Shown here: one piece after another, positions 6,869 to 57,135 of the stretch
Position numbering within the stretch: position 1 is the stretch's first letter
Layout: each line of letters opens with the position of its first letter
Assembly: GCA_951406725.2 (NCBI GenBank)
Contig: OX597818.1
Coordinates: forward strand, 72,850,001-72,914,000
Direction of reading: 5' to 3'
Length of the DNA stretch: 64,000 bases
From: Octopus vulgaris
Lineage: Eukaryota
Translations under genes and position numbers: made by a program
The notes under the pieces: model-generated
Seen by the model: the letters and a program-made list of their open reading frames with translations, nothing else
What the model was told of the DNA's origin: nothing
Database searches by the model: none

Positions 6869-7268
6869 TCCTCTATATATATTTACACACAAACATATAT
6901 ATATCACATGTTTTACAACATGTAGTCGGATGTTTTAATCATATATATTTCCATTTGGCGAAAAGTTAATCATTGATTTTTTTCTTTGTAACGCGATGTA
7001 ATTAGTTTGTTGCATCATCGTGAGTGATTGTTAATGAAGATTAATTATATAAAACTAATTTTGTTCGAGAAAGTTTGTAGTTTCTATGCTGATTGAAAGA
7101 CAGGCAAACACAAAAGGAGACGCACACAAACAGAGACAAACACATAGTGAACCAGACACACATACTGAAACACTCACGAACGTGCATATAAATCTATATT
7201 CAGCGAATATAGAATGTTTACATGTTCTTATGTATAACCTACATAACGTTATATAAGAGTCATAACTA

Positions 7269-8541
7269 CGAGGGACGTTCAATAAGTAATGCCTCTGACC
7301 CACTTGTAGTTGGTTGATCTAGCTGACATTTTGCATGTGCAATTATTTATATCTCTATACAGCTCTGAACTAATTGTGGTTTCTGATTTACAGGTGTTTG
7401 AACTCAGTCAAGTGTGAAATGGAGCCTGTTCAGTGTCGAGCAGTGATTCGGTTTTTGTATTTGAAAGGACGCACACCACGGGAGACTTTTGATGAAATGA
7501 AAGTAACTTATGGTGATGATGCCCCATCATATGACCTTGTAAAACGCTGGCATCGTGAATTCAAGCATGGTCGGAACTCTGTGGAAACAGCTCCCAGATC
7601 TGGTCGCCCCCCTTCTGCCATTGATGAGGCATCTGTCCGTCAAGTTGAGGCTGCTATTTTGGAAGATCGACGCATAATTATTCGCCAAATAGCCCATGAG
7701 GTCAAGATTAGTACCGGGTCCGTGGAAACTATCATTCATGACCATTTGCATATCCAAAAGTTGTCTGCCAGATGGACTCCCAGGTTGCTCACACCTTTCC
7801 AGAAGCAAGAACGCGTCGAGTGCTCGAGGATGAATTTGGAGATATGCCAAGAAGATGAGTCAAAATTTTTCAAAAGACTGATTACACAGGATGAAACCTG
7901 GGTCCATCACTAGGATCCAGAGACCAAAGCCAAGTCAATGCAGTGGAAGCACCGTGACTCACCTCCTCCAAAGAAGGCAAGGGTGCAGCCCTCCGCTGGC
8001 AAGGTCGTGCTCACAGTCTTCTAGGATCAGGGCGGAGTAGTGATGACAGATTTCCTGGCAAGGGGCACCACAATTACAGGAGCCTATTATGCTTCACTTT
8101 TGAGGAATTTAAGAGAAGCTACCAAAATCAAGTGGGGGGCAAGATCAGCAAAGGCATCCTCCTCTTGTTGGACAACGCTCCGGTCCACAACTCGCGTGTC
8201 GCCAGATCAGAAGCACAGACGTGCGGCTATGAACTCCTCCCCCATCCCCCTACTCTCCTGACCGTGCACTCTCTGATTTTCACCTCTTCCCAGCCACGAA
8301 GTTGTTTTTGAAAGGAAAGCGTTTTGCAAATGATGCAGCCTTGATTTCTGAAGTCACGTCGTGGTTGGAGGACCAAGCTGGGGTCTTCTACAAAAACGGT
8401 CTCCAGAGCTGCATCAAACGATGGGAAAATGCGTAACTCTGGGTGTTTCCTATGTAGAAAAAGACTAATAACTGTGCCAAGTTTCGTTGCTCTACTGCTA
8501 TGTGAAGTGGGTTAGGGGCATTACTTATTGAACGCCCCTCG
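7269..8541 (+). mobile_element. Full-length mariner (DD34D) DNA transposon, ~1.27 kb
   Basis: TIRs cgagggacgttcaataagtaatgcctctgacccactt / aagtgggttaggggcattacttattgaacgcccctcg; TA target duplication at 7267-68 and 8542-43; internal transposase. Confidence 0.95.
7419..8468 (+). pseudogene. Mariner transposase pseudogene
   Basis: Reads MEPVQCRAVIRFLYLKG...RSGRP...SARWTPRLL...ITQDETWVHH*DPETK...LLLDNAPVH...PHPPYSPDRALSDFHLF. In-frame TAGs at ~7911 and ~8022; frameshifts near 8135 and 8427. Confidence 0.9.
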
Positions 8542-8734
8542 TACTTGTAAATTGTGTATATATTAGCCGTGGTAAGATAGACGATCGTTTATAACTTGAG
8601 CGCATGGAAACATTTGTGAAAGGAAGTCGGGTAATTGATATGATCGTACTATATGATTAGTATTTATTTTCTTGATGCAAGTACTTTGAGAGTCATGGCT
8701 GTCCAAGCAGAGTTTTTGAAATAAGAGCGTATCA

Positions 8735-8813
<79 letters not shown>

Positions 8814-8814
<1 letters not shown>

Positions 8815-9415
8815 GGTTTTAAATTGATATTAAAATTAATATTAATTTATCTCCCTCAATTTTTAAATATTTAAATAAATACGTTCCCTAGTTGTAAGCA
8901 CTACCCGCAGTGAATTATTCACTGCAGCCCTTCGCTTCAGGAGTCTCTCAGCGCGCCAGAACCAAGACATTTGAAATTTTATTCTCGATGTAATCAGTAA
9001 GACTAAGCACGTGTCTGTCTTGACACAGAGAGCTGGGGTTAGTCTTGCGGTTTGCATCTCGAGGACCGAATGTACTGATGAAGTCACGGACACTGGAATT
9101 ATGCAAGTAATTCTTTTGTTAAGACCGAAACCGAGGTATGCATTTAAGTCTGTTATTTATTTAATTTTTCATATGTCCTGCCCGCCAAAGTTGGTTCTGG
9201 TGTTCGCTGAATTCTTCCTCTAGAGAATTTCCCTTGTAGTTTGATCGTTGATGATCTTCTTCTAGCATTCTGGCCGGCTACCTAGCAGGCCAGCCCTGCC
9301 AATATACAAATATATTTGAATTTTCTCTGACTCCTCAGATTTTTTTGAATGCTGGACTACTGGTTTTAAATTGATGTTAAAATTAATATTAATTTATCCC
9401 CCTCAATTTTTAAAT
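8814..9415 (+). mobile_element. Non-coding retrozyme/Penelope-pLTR-like element: 547-nt unit with 55-bp terminal direct repeat and one hammerhead
   Basis: 8814-8868 and 9361-9415 match at 53/55 positions; (TA)n lies on both sides; type I hammerhead at 9068-9145. Confidence 0.7.
9068..9145 (+). ncRNA. Type I hammerhead ribozyme (candidate)
   Basis: Stem I GAAUGUA/UGCAUUU; CUGAUGA at 9075-81; stem II GUC/GAC extended by a GAAUUAU-GCAA-GUAAUUC hairpin; GAAA at 9127-30; short stem III CC-GA-GG; cleavage triplet GUA ending 9138. Confidence 0.75.
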
Positions 9416-10370
9416 TTATATATATATATATATGTAAATATATAATACACTAACTGCATTTTTTGAATAACACTTTAGCATATAAATCGTTCCTATTTAT
9501 AAGATCCTTGCAAATTATGCAGCACAAGCTGGAGAAGTTCTGTTTATTTTTGCACTTGTCTCATAGTAGTTATTGCAATATTTATCTAAAAATTTCAACA
9601 GCCTTTCTACTCTCTTTTTTATACTCCACTTGTTTCTGTTTGTTTTCTGTATTTTAAAGTTGATTATAAATACTTAACTAATCTTATCTTATGTATAATA
9701 TGACGGCATGCGTTTCACAGCGGTTACAAAGAATGACGGAAATTAAAACAAAAAAAAGAGTAGGAATGAGTGACGTTCAGAGATGCTATATGCAGGTGAA
9801 CTGTAATGAGATATTTAGCTCTGAAGTGGGCAGTATATTAAATAAAATAAATGTAAATTTTCTGGTTAATTACCTAAATTTATTCTAATTTCCAAGTAAA
9901 ACATAACACATTCTCATACAGACATGTGTGTTTGTATATATATATATATATACATATATATAAAGTAACATTGATCATAGAACAAACTGCATTTTGAGTA
10001 ACAAATTCAAGTCAACGACTTTATATATAACACCATACCTCTAAACATTTCATCATATATAAATATTATCATGGTACAAAAACATATAAAATATACATAT
10101 ATAAAAAACACAGAAGGTAGGAATATATATACGAATAAATATACAGATATATAGAACGGCCTATTAAAAAGGTAAATACAATCGTCTAAATAATCTAAAG
10201 CGTGTCATGCTACTAAAAGTCTAAATAAAATAAAATAAAATATCATTCGACTAAAAAAAATTACTTACTCCCCTCAAAAAAAAGAGTACGTCAAAAAATG
10301 TTCAATTCACAAAAATCACGGTAGGTTAGAGTCCAAGAGCAAAAAGGGTTCCACAAAATCAAGTCAAATA

Positions 10371-10452: not shown

Positions 10453-11702
10453 AACAGAAACCTTATTCTTTATTACCCAATATGTCACCATCTATGTTGG
10501 CCCCTAGTGGGCCAACGTATATGGAGACAGCACAATCTGATTTGGGGTCAGATGCATGCTATGATTTCAAAATAAAGATGCGTTTAAAAATTAAACATGT
10601 AAATATATAAACGAATGATTTACATGAAACGAAGTAGAGATACAAATGGAGTGGTGTTTGGGGTCAGCTTCCACACCGCGAGCCCCAATCCACCAGTGAT
10701 ACCTTTCCAAGACACTTTATGTCGTACTTACACGGTTACATCCACTCGCAGCACTCGTGCTACATACTTCCATATTTCATCAAACATTTTCTCTGATAGC
10801 TGGATAAACAGGAAACTCAAGCAAAAAGTTCATTCAACGCTGCATGGCTAATTTAAAGATAATAATCAATGGACCAGTCCAAATTTTCTAACACACTGAA
10901 AGAAAATACGAATTATTTCATTGCTAAACATGCAGGTGGCTGTTGTTAATAGGAATTTTAACTATCCGGTTTCAAAATCCCATAAAACTAAATATTATTT
11001 ACCACATCTATATTTACCACTTCTATATATTTTCAAAAAGTAGAAGAAAACTTGTTGCAAAAAGGGATCGTGTTAGGTATATATGAGATTTTAGTTCTGA
11101 AGCCACTTAATTTTAGAGCGTTGTTGTATACCGGTGCATGTTGATAAAAAATCTCCGTTTGTGGACAATTTAGGGTTTCTGATTTTTAGTAGCATGACAC
11201 GCTTTAGAAGTTTACTAACAATATATGTACAAGAACGTTTAAATAAACAGAATATATTTATCGGAAAACACGTAACACGCCTAAATATAAACGCATATCG
11301 AACTTTGGACTCAGTATATATTTAAGTCATGATCACATATCCATCGCTGTACATATTTCATTTCAATACTTTAGCTCATGAATTTCTATGCTTATTTATC
11401 CGACTCAAAAAGTGAGCAATTACTTCCCTTGTCCCGAATAAACACAATCACCAATTAAATCTCCTTAGATTTTTCTACTTCTTGATTCGTTCACAAATTT
11501 TTATGCAATAAAACGGACTAAACACTTCTTAAGAAAATACGAAATCACCATAATATTCAATGTAATGATTAGCGAAAGTGAAACCGGTTGACAAACAATA
11601 TACTCTTCCTTTCACAATATATCAAATCTATGTAAACTGTGCATTTTCTCTTCCTCCCTTTTCTTACCAAATACATACATACATACATACATACATACAT
11701 AC

Positions 11703-14589: not shown

Positions 14590-16045
14590 AAAACCAGTTG
14601 CTTCTCCACTGACAGTTGCCAACACCTATTTGCGCATATTCTCTTAAAATTTGTATCTGCGCAGACGAAAACAAACGGTGTCCATTATCGTTTAGCAGCA
14701 ACATTTCTGCTGTCCAAAATTATGAGGCAGATGCCCAATTTAAGTGTCAATATAGGTGAGAAATGTGATCGTAACTCGAATGAGAAGTCTACCATCGTGT
14801 TAGAGCTTGGAAAAGGAAAAACTACCATGGAAATATGAAAAATACAGGGAAGAGATCACTGAACAGTGAAGGAATTCGTGCAGTCTCCTATTTCTGTCCA
14901 ATCGAGGGTTGTTTCGAATCATACTTTGTTACGTATGAAAAGCGAAGTTGCGCGGAACCCATGTCTGACAAATAGAGAAGTCTTCACATGTGTCGCCTCT
15001 TGAAGCAGGTAGCCTGGAATGTTAAACCTGTCACAAGGCTCCCTCTGAAAGCTGTTCATAAGCAGAAAAGACTGAAATCGTCGGAAAAAAATTAGGATAG
15101 ATTTTTCAACAGTTCTGTTCACTGACGAATGCCGTGCTACACTTGACGGATGACTGGAGTAAAGGCTGGAAATCATTCGGCGGGAACCGTCCTCATCGTT
15201 CAAGTCGCCAACAGTGGGGAAGTGGAGTCATATTTTCGGCTACCAGCATTGGTGGTATGAATGTCGGGCCATGGGACGTTCCAAATGGCATTAAGATGAC
15301 ATTAAAAACATATGTTATCTTCTTAAAGGACAATTTCCAACCGTGGATCAAAAGGCAAAAACTTTCATTCAAGAGAAAACTGGTCTTCATGCAAAATAAT
15401 GCTCCGTTTCATGCAGCGAAGAATTCTAAGGAATACTTGCAGAGAATAGGCTTCTCGGGAGGTCGTTTGATGGAGTGGCCATCTTGTTCTCTTGACTTAA
15501 ATCCGATCGAGAACCTGTGAAGTGTCCTGAAGATATAGGTTTACCAAGATGGAAGGCAGTTTTCAAGTAAAGTTGCTCACTGGGATGCTATGTAGATGCT
15601 GTTCAAAGCATGACACAAGAAGATATTAACATCTTGACAAATCCATTGGATCAGCGAGTAAGGAAGGTTATTGTATGTGGAACATCACACATCAAACATT
15701 AGGAGTTGTATGATATCATAGTACCATGATTATTTTCATTCGAAAGCATTATTATGGTTACCATTAAATCCTTTATGAATAATTGTTTTGTTAGACCTTT
15801 ACTGTTGAACTAAATAAATGTCCTGACATAATAATCAGTTTCATTATACTTGCCTAATAATTTGTGACGGTTAAAATGTTGCCCAATCACAAAAATGGGA
15901 GCAATTTGTTGGCGATTTATTTTAACGGAATGCGCGCAGATAGGTGCTACCAACAGTCAGTGGGAAAACAACTGGTTTTCACAGACAAACAAATAAACAT
16001 GACTGAAAAAACAATACCTCAGTCTTCGCTAAAGCAGAGATAATA
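14590..16045. mobile_element. Helentron/HINE-like non-autonomous element interrupted by a Tc1
   Basis: Degenerate inverted repeats 14590-14650 (aaaaccagttgcttctccactgacag...) and 15920-15980 (...cagtcagtgggaaaacaactggtttt), followed by acagacaaac and a terminal hairpin-like stretch ending in taataa. Confidence 0.4.
14709..15870 (+). mobile_element. Decayed Tc1-family (DD34E) transposon
   Basis: Degenerate TIRs (caaaattatgaggcag / cttgcctaataatttgtg). Transposase motifs VLFTDECRATLDG, FMQNNAPFHAAK, WPSCSLDLNPIENL, with many stops and frameshifts. Confidence 0.85.
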
Positions 16046-22095: not shown

Positions 22096-22530
22096 GTGGA
22101 TTTGTGCATACAGATAGTATCGTCGAAATTCTCGTGAAGAAAATAAAGTCGGATATATTCTGAATGCACTGACACACACAGACACACACACATACATACA
22201 TGTGTGTACATATATGTAAGTTTGTATGCATGTATATATATATATATATATTCATATATGTATGTAAGTTAGTATGTATGCATATATATATGCACTATAT
22301 GACACACTGATAAATAAATTATTACAAGAGAGTGAATATGAGATGCTATTATATAAGTACAAAAGTAAGCACCTATGTACATGTAATAAAGCATTTGAGA
22401 ACGATGAATCTTTACTTTTCAATACACAAGTAATGTAAATAAAATATAAGTAAACAATAAAATTAATATTCAAAACTTACGTGCGGTTATAAGCTTAACA
22501 TCGATAAGTTAAAATGGATAGAAAATGTTT

Positions 22531-22536
22531 ACTTAC
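22531..22536 (-). other. 5' splice donor GTAAGT after codon E202 of the receptor
   Basis: Plus strand acttac|ctc gives minus GAG|GTAAGT, a perfect consensus at the point where GPCR similarity stops. Confidence 0.9.
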
Positions 22537-23142
22537 CTCATAATAGACGGCACCTGGCATTACCGTGACAGCCACTAATAGATCAGCTAAAGCCAGTGAA
22601 CATATAAAGTAGTTTGTCGCACACTTTAAACTACGTTCTCGGTACACACTCATTACGACTAGAACATTCCCAAAAACAGTTAAAAGGGGAAACACAGCGA
22701 GTATGAGTTTCCAGTATTTTAAAGCTGCTTCCTCCGAGGATGCGAACTCGTTGTATGTAGAATTCCAGCAGATACTGTCATTCCAGTCACAAAACCATAT
22801 ACTATCGTTGTATATCACCAGGGAATCGGTTGTCATTGATGAAGCATTGCTAACGGCAGAAGAGTTATGTAAAGTGGAAAGATTTGTAGTGGAAACATGG
22901 TTTCCGGGTATGCCGTTTGCATCGTGCACATGCCTTCGTGGTGACTCTCCTACACCTGATAAAATATCAACAGGATCTGTACCAAGAAGTCCTTCAAAAA
23001 AGTCAGGGGATGGCGGGGTTTCTGGTTCTTTATTATCGGACGGTGCAAATAGTTTTTCAAGAAGTTTACTTCCTCCATTATATGTCACCGTGGCCATTTT
23101 GGTGGTTAAAGTTTGAACGGAGGAAGTTTTGTAAAAATCCAT
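22537..23142 (-). CDS. DRD2: D2-like dopamine receptor (class A aminergic GPCR), first coding exon: N-terminus, TM1, ICL1, TM2; partial gene
   Basis: The ORF translates to ...[60 protein letters not shown], with the TM1 GN and TM2 SLAxAD motifs. This closely parallels D2-type [35 protein letters not shown]. ATG context is ACAAAATGG. The exon ends GAG|GTAAGT (phase 0; donor 22536-22531); the ORF-track tail [13 protein letters not shown] is intron read-through. Subtype is assigned from TM1-TM2 only. Confidence 0.85.
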
Positions 23143-26111
23143 TTTGTAAAGTATCGTTGCAGTAAGTAAATGGGCAAATAGATTTCAATAGTTTTGTATT
23201 GGAAAATAACAAATGAGCATTCATATGCACATCTAACAATGGTACATTATATCCATAATGACTGTCTTTTATTCCGTTTGTTTTACTTCCCAATATATCT
23301 GATGGTTTGATATCCGTTAGAGTGAATTTTTCTGGATTGTAATAAAGAAAGAAATGCAAAATAATTTCAGGTTTTGTATTGGAAGTAGTTTTAGGAATAC
23401 AGAACAAAAATTGAGAGGAAAACTGCAACTTTGGTTATGATTACGTAGAATATTAATGAAGGAATAAAACATATATACCCTGTTCTTTCAACGAAATTAT
23501 TTCACTAAAATTTAGGACAGTGTATAAAAATATAAATGTTGATGTTTATATATAATTTTGTTCATGTCATTACTTTTACTAACCATATTTCAAAAGGATA
23601 AATTTTATGTGTAGGGGAAGTAGCAGTCGATAAATTATTTCGAGAAAATTAAAAGAGGTTTATGGTTTAGTTATCAGATTACGATATATTTCAAAATAAA
23701 ACCCGTTTATATATAATGGCTACACGATTTCATACAAATACTTTCATCTTTAACGATACTTGCCGTCTTCGTCGTCGACGTCTCTTTTACTTTGATAGCA
23801 GACGACATTGGACATATATGACGTTAGCTAAACTGAATTTCGTTCTGATTGATTAAATCATGTATAGTCCGAAAACTCGGTTTTCTGCAACTGTTCCTTT
23901 TACAAGCAACATTATCAGCGGGTCTTCCCATTAGAGTAGAAGAAACGGGATTATTAATACGCAAAACAATAGAAACGTCTAAACTTCCATGTGGAGATAT
24001 TGTCTTCCAAGATGAGGTTAAAACCAATTTGATAGAAGTAAACGTGGTTAGATATCGATGGTGGCTAATTTTTAAAGATTTTCTCGGTGAGCTCTTTGGT
24101 GCGATTTTCTGTTTCAACCGCAACATGACTTAGTGACTTTTTTATGGTGATATATCAACATTAGCACTGAAATTCTCTGTTGATATTATATTCAATTATC
24201 AGTAAATCTCTCACTGATATAAATAATATATAAAATGCAATTCAAGAAAGAGATTGCTGCAGATTAAAATTTCCTATTACGATATTCACTCCGCTTCCAA
24301 CCTTTTCGTATATCGCTTTATCTAAAACACCGTTCGTTTTTTAATTTTTTTTCTATGATGAATGTTCTTTCCGACAACTTAAATGCCATTAAAATCAATC
24401 AAGATTATCTAATAAGAACGATCTAAAATCATCTACAAGGAAAGATATGACTATAAATACGCTCTGTTTAAAGATGATTTCTCTACGATTTTACTTCTAT
24501 CATTAACAGATAGATTAGTGTTACGAATATAAAACAATTTTATAGAAGAGAGATCAAATTATTGTTACGGTAATTCTCATAAATAAATAGTTCTATACTT
24601 TACAAAATATATTCATGGTTTTAAAAAATATTTCTTTGGTGAAAATAATCCTATATTTAATATTGTGTTAAATAGACTAATATGTAAAGCAGTTGCTGAT
24701 GTAGACCTTTAATTGATTAGGAGAATAAAAATAATTAATGACAATCTAATAGAATAAGCAGCCTTCACTCACCTTAATACCTATCACTCACCAATCCACA
24801 AATTTTGAGCCACAAGAAATCCCTTGGAAAATTAAGGCGATTAAAACTATTTAAAGTGTGTTTGGACTAAACAATTAACAAACATTTAATCTGGATCAGG
24901 TTCTAAATATTTAAATCAAATATTCATTCGATCTAGACGAAAATGGTAAATGTAAATATTTTAATTTGGTCAATTGTAAATAGATGACCAATGATTTTCG
25001 TTCAGTTCAAAAAGATTTGGTATTAATTTTGGACAGAGAAAAGAATTACAGGAAAATCTATTTATATAATACATTTGGGAAAAATATTCGACAAAACTTT
25101 ATGAAAATATCTACAAACCATATAAACTGTAAGCATGTAATTGGTTAGTTGCTTACTAAAATCACCAAAGACGGATATTACAAACTATTTTCTACATATA
25201 GAGCATTTTACTGCGATCAAGCTGGGGCACTGCTATGAACATGTAGATTTTTAGAAACCCAGTAACTTAATTCCAGGAAGGGCTTCTCTAACTTTAAGTA
25301 AAGTTTTTTCTCAACAGTTTAAATAATGTTGTATTTCTTCAAAATTTATTTTGTGTTCCAAAGAAATATATGTATTAGTTGTAATGGAAATGCAAATTTG
25401 CAAAATTGAATCAAGATTTCACATCACTATAAAATCTTTAGTCGAGTTTTCACACAATCTTTCATATTAAAATATCAACTATTTTCTTTTTGCAATGCCA
25501 TCAAAATATGGATGTTGGCAGATGTCTAGTTCTCCTTCTGTATTCCTAAATACATACATATATATGTGTATAAGTATATATAACTGTATCGGGCTCCGGT
25601 CACTAACATTTGTTTTCAGTGAAGCATAAATATCCATCCACACGTTATGTTGTGTTCAGTTTACATCCACAATAGTTTCGTAAGTAAGGAAAGTTATCCT
25701 GTAGATATTGTCTTAGATCATTTCCTTCGATTGGTAATCTTGCAACATCAACTGATTATAGTATATTCAGTATAAGAACAATTTAGCTTCAAATATTTAG
25801 CTCTTCTTTCATTGATGCTGTCTTTCTGAAAGCAAAACAAATGTATAGATAAAATAGTATCCAGTGATATATTAAACAATGAATTTAATAAATATATTAT
25901 TCTAATGGAAATACATGCACAAAATGTTTATAAGAACGTGAAATAATTCAAACTAATATTTACTTGCTATTATTTATGATATTTATGTGCTTCGAAACCC
26001 AATTATAAAAAAATCATTAATTCTCAATTACTTCAAAGTTTATATATTCTTGTGACGTCTAATGCGCCCTATTCTCGCTGGCAAGAATAAACTTTATACA
26101 TATACTTGTCT

Positions 26112-51599: not shown

Positions 51600-54500
51600 G
51601 AAGAGAAGCTTCCAGAGACATGGAAACCAATTAAAGAAGAGAACAATTGGGCAAATCTGACACTGGCATCAGAGGCAATTGAAGCAGTGGAGAAGAACAG
51701 TGCTTTTCAGCTGCATCTAAGTAGTCACAAAAAGAGCAGTTCTGATAGACCAAGTAGTTATTAAGGCCACGTTGAGGTGCATAAGAAATGACATCGAATA
51801 CATAGCGAGAGGCAAACAATACGGCACAATTTCGGTGCTGTTTAAATCAGAAGCCTTCGCTGTGAAACATTCAATGCCCCCCTGAAAAACTCGCAAAGTC
51901 ATTATGTACCCGTCGCAAATGGGGAAACGTACAACCCGTGTCCGCTTTGCTAAAATCCCACCAGGACTAGATATTTTGTGACTTCTGGGATGCGTAATCG
52001 TGGAGGGGACGGATACTATTCCCTATAGAGGCGACAGGAACTGCTAAGGAGGTCTGATCACGGGTTGATCTGGAGAGGTATCTCCAGATTAGACCCGAAA
52101 ACATGAAATAAATCTCAAGCCACATTCGTCTCTAGAACAGGACGGTGATACACATCCTGACTGAGGGCAAAATGCCTCATTGTTTCAGGTATGGAGAAAC
52201 GACTCATTTGGCTGCTCACTGCCTCTTACGGCCTCCTCTACTGCCTACGCCTGGACGAGAACCACAAATATCACCAGCACTGGCAAAACCACCAGCAACA
52301 ACACCAAATACATTAACAACCCTAGGGGGAAACAAGGAAAGATTTCCCACCGCATCACACCAAACAAAAATACACATATAAATAAGATTATAAATATACA
52401 CACAGACACAGACATACTTACAGCAACAGACCCTTCACCTTCCAGTAGTTAAGATGAAGGAAAAACGAAAAGGCTAACCCCTCAAAAAACACAAAAAAGA
52501 AAGCACAAAAAGACTCCACATAGCAACAGCCACAGTAAAAAATACAAACACCACCCACGCAAACATCTCTTCCAAAACACCAACACAAACACAACCAACA
52601 CGGTCACTATCACCAGAATCCCTCACACGTAAACAACCTGAACAGGTAGACACTCACACAAACATCTAAAACTGCAGACACCACACTCACAGCACACACA
52701 GAAACAACAGAAACGACAATACCTTCATCAGTACAGTCAAACAAACAAATTAAACAACACCAACACAAAACACGCAATTTTGTACTCATCATAAGGGAAA
52801 ACGAGGAACATATCGGAAAACGTGGGAACCCCGAACGTGAGACCCGCATCGAGGCTTTTAAAGGTGTTCCCTAAAAAGACTCTAACAACTATGGTGGTCG
52901 AAATACCTAACCTTTACAAGACACCAGTAGGTAAGTAACCATTTCCTTTCTCTCTTTAGCTTGCCAACACTGCCATACTAAGAATAGGATTTCTAAATGT
53001 GCGAGGGCTAGAGACACCCTGGAAGTAGGGAGACCTTCTCAACAACCTCAGGTCTCTAGAACTGGATATAATTGCTATCAGTGAAACTAAGATTTCCAAT
53101 ACACGCGCACTGGCTCCCATGTTCGACGACTATCAGATCTTTGCATCGGTTAGTCGGTCGGGAATAGGGGTGGAGTAGATGTGCTGTTTAGGAGAGAACT
53201 GGATCTCGAGTTAAAGTTGATCTTCCGTGACCCGGACAGGTAGTACTGGATATGAGCAAGTCAACAAGTGGCTGTCTACACTCCTACTGGAGCCAAACGG
53301 ACAGATTTATTTAGGCGTCTGGAAACCTATCTAGGTAAGTCTCGCTCTTTACTGGTAGTCGGGGACTAGATTGGTATCCGAGATCAACGTTGGGATTATG
53401 TGCGAATTGCTGAAAGAAAAGAGGTTACAAAAACCTCAAGCACCTGATCAGGCTGTTCCAACTGTTTGACAGGTACCGACGAGATGTCCCTAATGCGCCT
53501 GTGTAAGACTTGGATCAACCGCTTAGGGTTATCTACATCGTGCAGATATATGATTTTCCCTAGAAAAATAGATAGTAACACTGTAGGAAGTCCCCCATTT
53601 TTAAAACGGTCGCCTATTTAGACCATAAGTTTGTAATCTGTACGGTCGACCTAGATAAGACGCGTAGGCTAGGTGCCGGTTACTGGAAGCTGAACATGTC
53701 GTTTCTGGCACGCAAGGCTTGCCGGGGCTGGGTCAATAATTTAGCTCAGCAGAAGTTGAGCAACAACTGGCGGGGAGCGGCTCTCAAAAGAGAGATTAGA
53801 GTAATGCCGATAGGTTTTAGCAAAGAAAGAGCGTTAGAAAGAAACAAAAAAGTGGAGGGGTTAGTAGCTAGACGAGGCTATTTGTAGTGGCATGGCAACC
53901 GATGTGCTAGCAGCGAGATTGGCAAGAAACCAGTTATTCAACGCGAAATAGGAAGGTTGTATTGTCAGAGATAAGACGTGTGCTGTAAGAAATGGTGGGG
54001 ATCAAAGCTGTTCGATGGGCCCGCGCGGTGGAGACGCAGCGTGGTAATAAAACCACAATTCGGTCTTTCACGGATCGGACGGACAAAAGCTGAGCGATTC
54101 CAGGCAGATACGGGAGGCCTTTTTGCCAGTAATTTGCTCCGTTGTTCGGAGAGAGTGGTGGGCGAAGATTGTGGAGGACTTAATTTCCTACCTCGATGGC
54201 TTATCACGTCTCTCGACAGCCGACGTTGAGCGCTGTGAAAGACAAATAACTTCAGCCAAAATTCAGGATGTCCTTGTTGCTTGCAGGAGGAACAAGTCCC
54301 CAGGTTTAGATGGTCTACCCTATGAACTTACGTAAATATAGCAAACTTGTCCTTTGATCTCCTCGAAGAGCTCTATAGCAACTGGCATCAGAACGGGAGT
54401 ATTCCCAGTTCTGTGAACCGGCGCGTAGTGACGCTGATAAGGAAAGACGAAAACACAAGGGACACATTATATAATTTCAGCCCCATAACATTGCTTAACA

Positions 54501-55495
54501 CTGAGTTTAAGATTTTGGCCAAGGTATTAGCAAAGAGGTTGTCGCTTGTCGTCGAGGACTTCGTCGGAGAGGCACAAACCTGCGCAATCCTGACTAGGTC
54601 AATACACGACAACCTCCACCTCATGCGATACATCATAGAAAGTGTAGGGTGCAAACCTGGCTTCGGTGGGCGCTGATCAATATCTGGAGGCTGTCCTCAA
54701 AGTGGATGTCTTCAGCGGTTGGATTGCTGCAATGCACAGCGGCACCTGCTCGGTGGTTAAAATTTATGGCTACATATCGGAACTGTTTCATATCTCCCGA
54801 TCGGTCCGTACATATTGACTCTTGAGCCTTTACTGCGGAAGCTGGAGCTGCTGCAGGGTATCCCGCTCGAAAAGAAACTGAGACGCAGAGAAGCTGTGTT
54901 GCCATATGCGAACGATATCACCGTGATGGTGTCGAACACATCAGAAATCGACGTGGTTGGCACATCATTGGAGGAAGAGGAAAAGTTGACAGGAGCTAAA
55001 CTTATCCCGAAAGAGTGGGTGGGCTTGCAACTCGGCACCTGGAAAGGAATGTCCATGCCGTCCGACAGTATCACTGGGCGCTAGACGGATATACCGGTAA
55101 AGTTGCTTAGGGTTTGGTTCGGCCCAGACCTCCAGGTGGATAACAACTGGGACGAGGCGACGAGCAGAGTAGCCAGTCTCACCCAGATATATGATGGGAG
55201 GAAGCTATCACTGAAAGGTCGAGCGGAGGTGACGAATGCGTACGTCACGTCCGTCATCTACTACCGTTTGACTGTTGTGCCTTGCCTCCGATCGTGCCTC
55301 GCCAAGTTAGAACGCCTCCTCTTCAAATTTATGTAGAGGGGACAGGTTCCATTGGTGACGCAGTCCATCTGCTACCAACACTTTCTACGCGGAGGGCTGG
55401 GCATACCGTGGCTATGTATGCGCAGACATGCGCTGAGACTGCGGTATCTCCAGATATTCTGTCTAAATGGTGAACAGGTATGGTTGCCGTTTGTC
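51600..55495 (+). mobile_element. Decayed Tx1/L1-clade LINE (ORF1 zinc knuckle; ORF2 APE + RT), 3'-truncated by a Penelope insertion
   Basis: ORF1 relic CFRYGETTHLAAHC. ORF2 from ~52975: RIGFLNVRGL...DIIAISETK, GYWKLN, KSPGLDGLPYE, SPITLLNTEFKILAKVLAKRL, YANDIT, LSLKGRAEV, GGLGIP. Many stops and frameshifts. Confidence 0.9.
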
Positions 55496-57135
55496 ATAGT
55501 AAGTTGTATCGAACATAAAAAAGTTGTTCAGCAGGATGAATTTGAGTGCTTAAGCACTCAACTTCATCCTGCTGAACAATTTTACTATCGACAAAAATGT
55601 GGAATTGCAATGGGAACCAGAGCTACTCCAGTGATTGCAAACCTTGTAATGGGTTACCAAGAACTTTAGTTATACCAATCATCACTAGAAAAATATGGTG
55701 CCTCTTTTAATTGCTATTTAGAGGAGAACTGGAAGAGATATTTCGATGATTGCTTCATGCTTTGGAAAGACAGCATGGTCCAACTCCTTAATTTCAAATT
55801 AATGCTTAACAACATACATAGCAATATACAATTCACTATGGAACACAACAGTAAACAACTCCCTTTTCTAGACATCTTAATTAAGATAGTTAACAACCAC
55901 ATAGAAACAGACATCTTTTATAAACCCATAGATTCTAAACAATACCTATTATTTAACTCTTGCTACCCCAAACACATAAAAATTCATATACCTTTTAATC
56001 TAGCGAAAATAATCTGTACCATAGTTTCGGATACATATACTCGTGAACAAAGACTCCTTGAAATTAGATCAGCACTAAATAAAAGACATTACCCAATCTT
56101 ATTAATAAATGAATGCATTAAAAGAGTTAAGGAAATTGATATACAAATATTAAGGCAAGCCAGCCGAAATACTAAACCAGACTTTAAAATACTCCAGTAC
56201 ATTTCCACACATAACCCTAGAAGCAACGAAGCCTTCAACATTATCACCCAAAATCTTCCCATCGTCACAGTAGACAAAACAATGAACGAAATTTTAAGCT
56301 CATACAAAATTATAAAAAGCAAAAAGGCAACCGAAGTCACTGAAAAAAATATTAACCAGCGCAAGACTATATCCACTGACAGCAGAGCCAAAAGTGAAAA
56401 AATGTGATCGTCCTAACTGTGGAACATACCCCCACCTTTTCGAGAGTTCAGAATTTCACTTCAAACAAGAAGAAATATTTAAGATCAAATCAAATTTCAC
56501 CTGCGCCTCGGAAAATCTAATCTATGTCATGACATGCTTAGGAGGTGGTAACCCCTATATTGGACAAACAGGAATATCACTCCGTCGAAGAACGACAATC
56601 CACAAAGAGCAAATCCGCCACCCACAATACAGACAGTTGCAGGTTAGTGAACACATAGCAAGGTGTGTCAGGAATCTTAATCCTAATTTCCAAATCTTCC
56701 CCTTCTATCAATGTTCACAGAACACCACAATGCAACAAAGGTTGAATAAAGAGGCAATTATCATCAATAAATATCTTCCCCAACTAAATATGAACACACA
56801 ACTTAATACGGAACACCACTAACCCTTCAATTAACACTACTAACCCCTATGCACTCCCTACACCATTCACATTACAATTCTATATCTAACACAACTGCAC
56901 TCAAGCCAGAACTACTTACCTCCCTTACAAATAATCTTTTTATTCAGGAACTATGAGACCTGACACCGTTCATTAGCCGGTGTTTATTCAAAGCAATGAT
57001 GAAACCATGATATGCTTTACTTTCTGACTTTTTAATCATCTCATAATAATGACTTTTATGACTTCTATTACTACCTCAGTCCATCTAAATGTATATATCA
57101 ATGTGCATTTTCGTTGATTTTTCTTATTTTCCACC

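Follow-up and report, generated by a model that had tools for sequence, protein, structure and literature searches.

The locus analysed here raises the question of how a non-coding repeat with a self-cleaving ribozyme motif came to its place in the genome of Octopus vulgaris. The window, by which we mean the whole stretch of 64,000 nucleotides that was analysed, holds one such insertion (Table 1). The preliminary description of this DNA had posed a choice between a retrozyme, copied by reverse transcription around a circular RNA, and a solo pseudo-LTR (pLTR) of a Penelope-like element (PLE). Our data indicate that this choice is not an either/or, since the insertions show Penelope anatomy without an ORF. 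The 547-nt hammerhead repeat quite probably spreads as a self-cut RNA circle which is copied by a borrowed Penelope-like reverse transcriptase (RT) and endonuclease.

The terminal direct repeat of 55 bp, the (TA)n on both flanks and the lack of recognisable coding had all been described correctly: the repeats at 8814-8868 and 9361-9415 are spaced 547 bp apart, and the longest Met-started frames of the unit, when it is read as a circle, encode 40 aa on the forward and 64 aa on the reverse strand. The whole unit is far more structured than its shuffles (z -4.2 as a linear and -4.5 as a circular molecule, with 40 shuffles for the circle). Several other elements were noticed in the window. A mariner-type DNA transposon at 7250-8560, 250 bp to the left of the insertion, has inverted ends of 56 nt and a transposase (HTH_48) that is broken. 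A broken Penelope-like element at 54326-56822, positionally unrelated to the insertion, gives weak RVT_1 and GIY-YIG matches and is 52-54% identical to a young Neptune-type protein. The remaining ones are a DDE_3 transposase fragment (15101-15520, forward strand), a frame that encodes the beginning of a rhodopsin-family GPCR domain, probably a host-gene exon (22495-23184, reverse strand), and a pair of 28-nt inverted repeats 959 nt apart (10194-10221 and 11181-11208), possibly a small DNA element.

Table 1. Features of the insertion and of its immediate flanks, in window positions
Feature	Positions	Strand	Remarks
Left flank, target microsatellite	8743..8813	.	(CA)28 then (TA)7
Whole insertion	8814..9415	+	single arm, 1.1 units, 5'-truncated, 3' end at site B
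One repeat unit, 547 nt	8814..9360	+	family period 546-547; folds better than shuffles
Long hairpin (unit 175-243)	8988..9056	+	contains the 5'-end hot spot and the recurrent GCG/TCA site 9047-9049
Type I hammerhead motif	9068..9145	+	read from sequence; predicted cut 9138/9139
Stem I	9068-9074/9139-9145	+	7 pairs, two G-U
Core CUGAUGA	9075-9081	+	
A10.1·C11.1	9082/9126	+	non-canonical pair
GCAA loop of the distal hairpin	9103-9106	+	
GAAA	9127-9130	+	
Stem III	9130-9137	+	short, self-complementary
GUA	9136-9138	+	
3' site A of the family (unit 495-502)	9308..9315	+	AU-rich, TA-target-like; internal in the window copy
'Tail' between 3' sites A and B	9316..9415	+	about 100-110 nt; on one arm only in most head-to-head insertions
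Start of second unit (terminal redundancy)	9361..9415	+	53/55 identical; reaches site B, merges with (TA)n
Right flank, target microsatellite	9416..9434	.	(TA)n, about (TA)9

The type I hammerhead is present as it had been described, with intact CUGAUGA, GAAA and GUA and a stem I of 7 bp, and two details of that description need to be amended. The GCAA tetraloop exists but caps a distal extension past an internal loop and not the proximal stem II; most of 38 aligned relatives have GUAA or AUAA loops instead. The A-C pair, regarded as the only blemish, is equally real but is not a defect of the window copy, because all 49 of the 49 family hammerheads read from the first 30 loci carry A10.1·C11.1. 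The motif did not arise by chance, since an exact 22-mer of it has 335 copies in the genome versus 0 for the reversed control, and since its stems covary across subfamilies. A scan against Rfam gave no hammerhead at E<=1 and two weak chance matches only, and the active shape is the minimum-energy fold neither of the isolated motif (z -0.3 and -0.4) nor of the circular unit. Stem III consists of 3 bp and a 2-nt loop and is self-complementary (ACCGAGGU), its duplex having an energy of -6.6 kcal/mol. A short palindromic stem III has been described as needing a dimer (PMC4209133), and a dimer is likely needed for activity here as well. Unrelated type I hammerhead motifs with a palindromic stem III were seen in the flanks of five loci (L039, L042, L092, L216 and L231).

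Comparison with the 38 relatives clarifies the non-canonical pair. At 10.1/11.1 these relatives have G-C in 18 cases, A-U in 5, G-U in 1 and no pair in 14. As sister subfamilies have G-C or A-U in the same register, A·C appears to be a substitution that was fixed in the expanding branch. We dropped the idea that the A following the core is the 'extra nucleotide' described for PLE hammerheads (PMC4209133), because the sisters have G-C in that register. In the alignment of the relatives 94.0% of the cells pair versus 86.7% in shuffles, an excess that kinship alone can produce. Nine of the 11 pairs of stems I and II have changed on both sides, and the core and the stem III pairs are invariant, although the invariance of the core is partly built in, since the sister sets were picked by core motifs. 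The pattern of paired changes suggests that the hammerhead is under constraint.

Judged by its similarity to other copies in the genome (2.8 Gb in 227 contigs were searched), the window unit is a member of a young, dispersed family of several hundred non-coding 547-base repeats. Its full-length relatives are 97-99% identical (124 matches, 40 best of 1531 candidates). The young family is nested in an older superfamily of about 500-550 nt with covarying hammerhead stems. Two further motif patterns gave 88 and 139 matches, nearly all from sister subfamilies, and the 45 sister loci read share about 70-89% identity with the unit and have a period of about 546-550 and 3' ends as in the family. A pattern aimed at hammerhead relatives outside the family retrieved one family variant only. 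More distant families (L235-L259, L114:4100-4571, L107, L141 and L168) have the layout and the 3' region of the family; one of them has 2670 first-look candidates and a period of about 489, and some distant cores are altered, e.g. to CCGAUGA. One older subfamily forms a head-to-tail array of about 10 kb on contig C2 (G000:C2:212108977-212119055, L176-L189), which has canonical hammerheads, is about 70% identical to the window unit with a period of about 550, and looks locally amplified.

The structure of the insertions was parsed in 95 loci, one of which (L113) apparently duplicates L112 and was dropped; the other 94 loci, out of perhaps 200 young ones, comprise 163 arms, and flanks of 1.5-3.5 kb were read. 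The best-score list, which is biased to long copies, supplied 38 of the 94; for the other 56 the motif list for contigs C1-C4 was followed in genome order, mostly skipping the loci of the first set. All 94 loci consist of unit sequence only. More than one unit is found in 71 arms, more than two in 13 and more than three in 3, the longest arm having 2142 nt (3.9 units), and a single arm may contain up to 4 complete hammerheads. Both ends have (TA)4 at a distance of no more than 30 nt in 78/94 loci, and one end does in 16/94, in a genome where the density of (TA)n is generally high. The preliminary description had proposed to test whether the copies start at circularly permuted points or form tandem arrays. 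Tandem arms and scattered 5' ends were indeed found, but the 3' ends are fixed at two sites and not permuted. The 5' ends are distributed nearly uniformly round the unit (KS p 0.10), save for a hot spot at unit 218-224 (window 9031-9037) with 10/163 ends versus 2.1 expected in an interval that was chosen after looking; the RT possibly stalls here within the long hairpin, or transcripts may start here.

The two 3' sites, A (unit ~495-502) and B (unit ~55-68 of the next turn), lie about 110 nt apart; both are AT-rich and merge into the TA tract. Among the 30 one-arm loci the 3' end is B in 21, A in 8 and another position in 1. The 56 clean head-to-head loci, with 8 complex loci kept out of the count, are distributed very unevenly: 40 pair A with B, 12 B with another end, 2 A with another end and 2 B with B, and none pairs A with A. 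Like-with-like pairs were so few in 0 of 100,000 shuffles. Head-to-head structure is present in 37 of the 56 loci taken in genome order, and at most central junctions the overlap amounts to 0-7 nt. The insertions therewith carry the marks of the Penelope type, being made of partial tandems plus an inverted copy that is truncated at its 5' end, with the tail on one side only.

The nature of the template can be read from the variants. At 16 polymorphic columns there are 21/705 differences within an arm and 21/708 between opposite arms, versus 71,534/176,143 between loci. Further counts were made after masking unit 234-236 and the AT-rich zones at the ends. In these, variants known from at least 5 loci are shared by every unit of the multi-unit locus in 204/211 cases. 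Of 177 locus-private variants, 155 are confined to one unit, 2 are shared by some units and 20 by all, and 12 of these 20, from 9 loci, span both arms; those in a single unit we read as later mutations or RT errors. At the predicted cut site there are no 3' ends and 5/163 5' ends versus 3.6 expected, and 161 of the 168 passes over it are unchanged. Since the ends ignore the cut site and the passes are intact, the template would have been read through the cut repeatedly, with new variants reaching every unit. The haplotypes shared by opposite arms reject an origin of the two arms from two RNAs of a general pool, and the lack of an end cluster at the cut rejects a linear cleaved monomer as a template without jumps. 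A circular monomer explains the shared haplotypes and the read-through most simply. A haplotype shared between arms looks the same whether it comes from one RNA molecule or from two transcripts of one source locus, and uncut multimers from homogeneous source arrays may also be compatible with the haplotype data.

One site departs from this uniformity. At unit 234-236 (window 9047-9049), within the long hairpin, GCG is replaced by TCA in 17/147 units on differing haplotype backgrounds; the two forms are mixed within 10/44 multi-unit loci (examples are L002, L016, L019, L143 and L159), and none is uniformly TCA. Older subfamilies have TCA or ACA there. The mixing could be due to recurrent RT error, to change after insertion or to assembly error. 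It counts against the model, since an error-free single circular template would not predict it. The inside of the same hairpin (about unit 175-243) is apparently inverted in L021 and probably in L062, and in contig 22 of sequencing run X18 the 90 letters matching its interior are replaced.

Contigs on the unit were found in four runs that are guessed to be RNA (X1, X3, X9 and X14, whose kind is unrecorded). In run X1 the coverage of the unit is lower than that of the neighbouring mariner, and the same is seen in X15, a large run whose kind is likewise unrecorded, so nothing follows from this about expression of the unit. A contig of 577 nt in run X18 goes once round the unit, which fits tandem DNA and a circle alike.

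Taken in sequence, the circle model would work as follows. Loci with two or more hammerheads per arm would be transcribed, the ribozymes would cut, probably as dimers, and the released monomer would be ligated into a circle. The junctions suggest that a GIY-YIG enzyme then nicks a (TA)n tract and that the RT starts at the AU-rich site A or B, 170-280 nt downstream of the cut. Synthesis appears to pass the cut site and to proceed for 0.1-3.9 turns with scattered stops. In most insertions the same template would then also serve for a second strand, begun at whichever site the first had left unused, and both products would be joined head to head; the pattern of turns, stops and paired ends is observed, and the mechanism behind it is our reading. 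In this explanation the window copy is a one-arm product which started at B and stopped 55 nt beyond one turn. Its terminal redundancy, present as described, is thus incidental: it follows from a fixed 3' site and random 5' truncation. Reverse transcription round a circle is the best explanation for the family, but the window copy, having a single hammerhead, would itself be a product and not a source, because the release of a monomer needs two cuts; we infer that it could not have released a monomer circle by itself. The fixed non-canonical A·C, an active fold that is not the minimum-energy one and the lack of helper homology in the stretches tested count against the model.

Some weight must be given to a closely related explanation, in which the repeat is likewise a non-autonomous PLE but its template is an uncut linear multimer, or a linear monomer copied with precise end-to-end jumps, and the hammerhead is slow, protein-assisted or partly vestigial. 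The A·C mismatch fixed in an expanding family would fit it, as would the mixed GCG/TCA site. Uncleaved RNA was the dominant substrate of the Anolis PLE in vitro (PMC11167929), 8/9 Xenopus retrozyme dimers were uncleaved in vitro (bioRxiv 10.64898/2026.07.22.740005), and the long older array could supply multimeric RNA. However, only 6 of the 56 genome-order loci carry two hammerheads in one arm, so copying with truncation would shorten the arrays in each generation, and the period nonetheless persists in subfamilies that are 70-89% identical. New variants in all units of a locus, a cut site with neither scar nor end cluster and hammerhead stems that still covary also speak for a circle, and we consider a linear template unlikely.

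Far less probable is that the unit is a solo or tandem pseudo-LTR of an ORF-bearing Penelope whose full-length copies lie outside the sampled loci and flanks. Every hallmark of the insertions is PLE-like, which would suit this explanation, but a perfect head-to-tail period of up to 3.9 units leaves no room for an ORF. Searches with PLE protein (tblastn) matched 5/103 family and sister loci, in all cases at least 0.7 kb from the arms, and 0/45 further sister loci and 0/25 loci of a distant family. The attachment of copies to a Penelope ORF, which had been named as the observation that would speak for an ordinary pLTR, was found in 0 of the 103 + 45 + 25 loci, none of which is joined to an RT and GIY-YIG ORF; the pLTR of an ordinary autonomous PLE was rejected on this ground. 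A profile of 34 natural copies, compared with 60 stretches (GIY-YIG matches, PLE fragments and odd hammerheads), gave no pLTR homology, and the matches in those PLE-associated stretches are separate family copies only. It is just as hard to believe that monomers were retrotransposed and that the tandems arose later by local DNA duplication, unequal crossing-over or gene conversion, as in the minisatellite model proposed for vertebrate retrozymes (bioRxiv 10.64898/2026.07.22.740005, Discussion). Such processes would homogenise the units within an arm, and the C2 array looks like a product of local amplification. They sit badly with partial units at 5' ends scattered round the unit, with opposite arms that share haplotypes and 12 private variants, and with arrays that are short, young and directly flanked by (TA)n at fixed 3' sites.

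If the repeat is copied as a circle by a borrowed enzyme, the best candidate for the helper is a Neptune-type PLE (L081-L096, e.g. G000:C16:20834000-20842500), which came from a partner search in which 150 of 6136 GIY-YIG candidates were scored. It is very young, with a median ORF distance of 0.66% among 16 copies, and has an unbroken frame of 781 codons with RT and GIY-YIG matches and a CX4CX2C linker of the Neptune/Nematis type as defined in PMC8557442. The element ends in (TA)n, and a tail of about 38 nt is found in 4/16 direct ends and in neither of the two inverted ends seen, so that its target and its rule for the two ends agree with those of the family. Its terminal repeat contains a hammerhead-like UUGAUAA core, with U3 and A8 replacing C3 and G8, and a palindromic stem III. 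As the unit and this element share no alignable sequence, the assignment is inferred from the target, from its age and from the pattern of its ends. One Neptune-type locus resembles the unit over 22 nt, but this resemblance was discarded, its score being within the range of shuffles (30 versus a maximum of 34). We would also venture, as a possible though somewhat doubtful refinement, that a dimeric PLE enzyme primes both nicked (TA)n strands at the two sites about 110 nt apart on one ribozyme-made circle, with no helper homology needed. If so, one circle with two starts would explain retrozyme tandems, the head-to-head structure of PLEs and the one-sided tail together, and the insertions would document, in the genome itself, rolling-circle reverse transcription by Penelope.

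Judged by all the genomic features tested, the family is an animal non-LTR retrozyme, with cleavage and circle predicted; by the anatomy of its insertions we class it as a non-autonomous Penelope-like element. Such retrozymes have been proposed to move as RNA circles copied by the RT of PLEs (Cervera and de la Pena, 2020, PMC7229834), and a 2026 preprint (Li, Clavereau and Pollet, 10.64898/2026.07.22.740005) regards them as non-autonomous PLE sequence. According to these two sources they resemble the octopus family in a tandem unit that lacks coding sequence, is low in GC and contains one type I hammerhead, in the range from monomers to multimers, in the absence of LTR, PBS and PPT, and in the co-occurrence of autonomous PLEs. 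The plant LTR retrozyme, with type III hammerheads in LTRs, PBS/PPT and a 4-bp TSD, was rejected as a model, since the unit has a type I hammerhead, a single-period tandem and no LTR. The unit of 547 nt exceeds the 170-400 nt given in PMC7229834 and lies within the 51-972 bp of the preprint. The preprint reports that 24/57 Xenopus families match known TEs, nearly all of them PLEs, whereas the octopus family has no homologous pLTR among the 60 stretches. The words 'head-to-head' and 'tail' are absent from the main text of the preprint, and 'inverted' from that of PMC7229834. In the main texts of the open literature we found no description of the family, no earlier account from this group of animals, and nothing on the A/B and single-template pattern for retrozymes. 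The class is thus already known, as is the link to PLEs, proposed in PMC7229834 and argued by homology in the preprint; what we add is evidence at the level of junctions on the return of a retrozyme RNA to the genome and on the origin of the tandem and inverted structures of PLEs, specifically the fixed dual start sites, the strict A/B asymmetry and the single template per insertion.

Among PLEs, the EN+ Neptune-type elements are described (PMC8557442, PMC3846280, PMC11167929) with the same 5' truncation, partial tandems, head-to-head arm, one-end tail, two fixed 3' ends and microsatellite or AT-rich target, and with a type I hammerhead that has a short palindromic stem III (PMC4209133). In PMC8557442 and PMC3846280, PLE insertions are reported to combine partial tandems with an inverted copy truncated at its 5' end, and to carry the tail on one side only. 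The octopus family differs from these elements in having no ORF and in the length of its tail (about 100-110 nt versus 30-40). Non-coding, PLE-mobilised and multicopy head-to-tail repeats are also represented by MRC1 of Chlamydomonas, a non-autonomous Chlamys PLE (PMC8557442); unlike the octopus family, non-autonomous Chlamys PLEs are said there generally to share 3' sequence with an autonomous partner, and their clade to lack canonical hammerheads. In the work on a purified PLE (PMC11167929) the tail corresponds to the sequence that separates two start sites of the RT, and the enzyme used uncleaved RNA, the hammerhead being dispensable in vitro. The 3' ends of the octopus family resemble the TA target, whereas the Anolis PLE of that study started at a non-homologous site in vitro. 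The octopus family offers a template of 547 nt and a defined target, (TA)n, and its genome also encodes a young, intact candidate enzyme, which makes the return of the RNA to the genome directly testable in the existing in vitro PLE assay.
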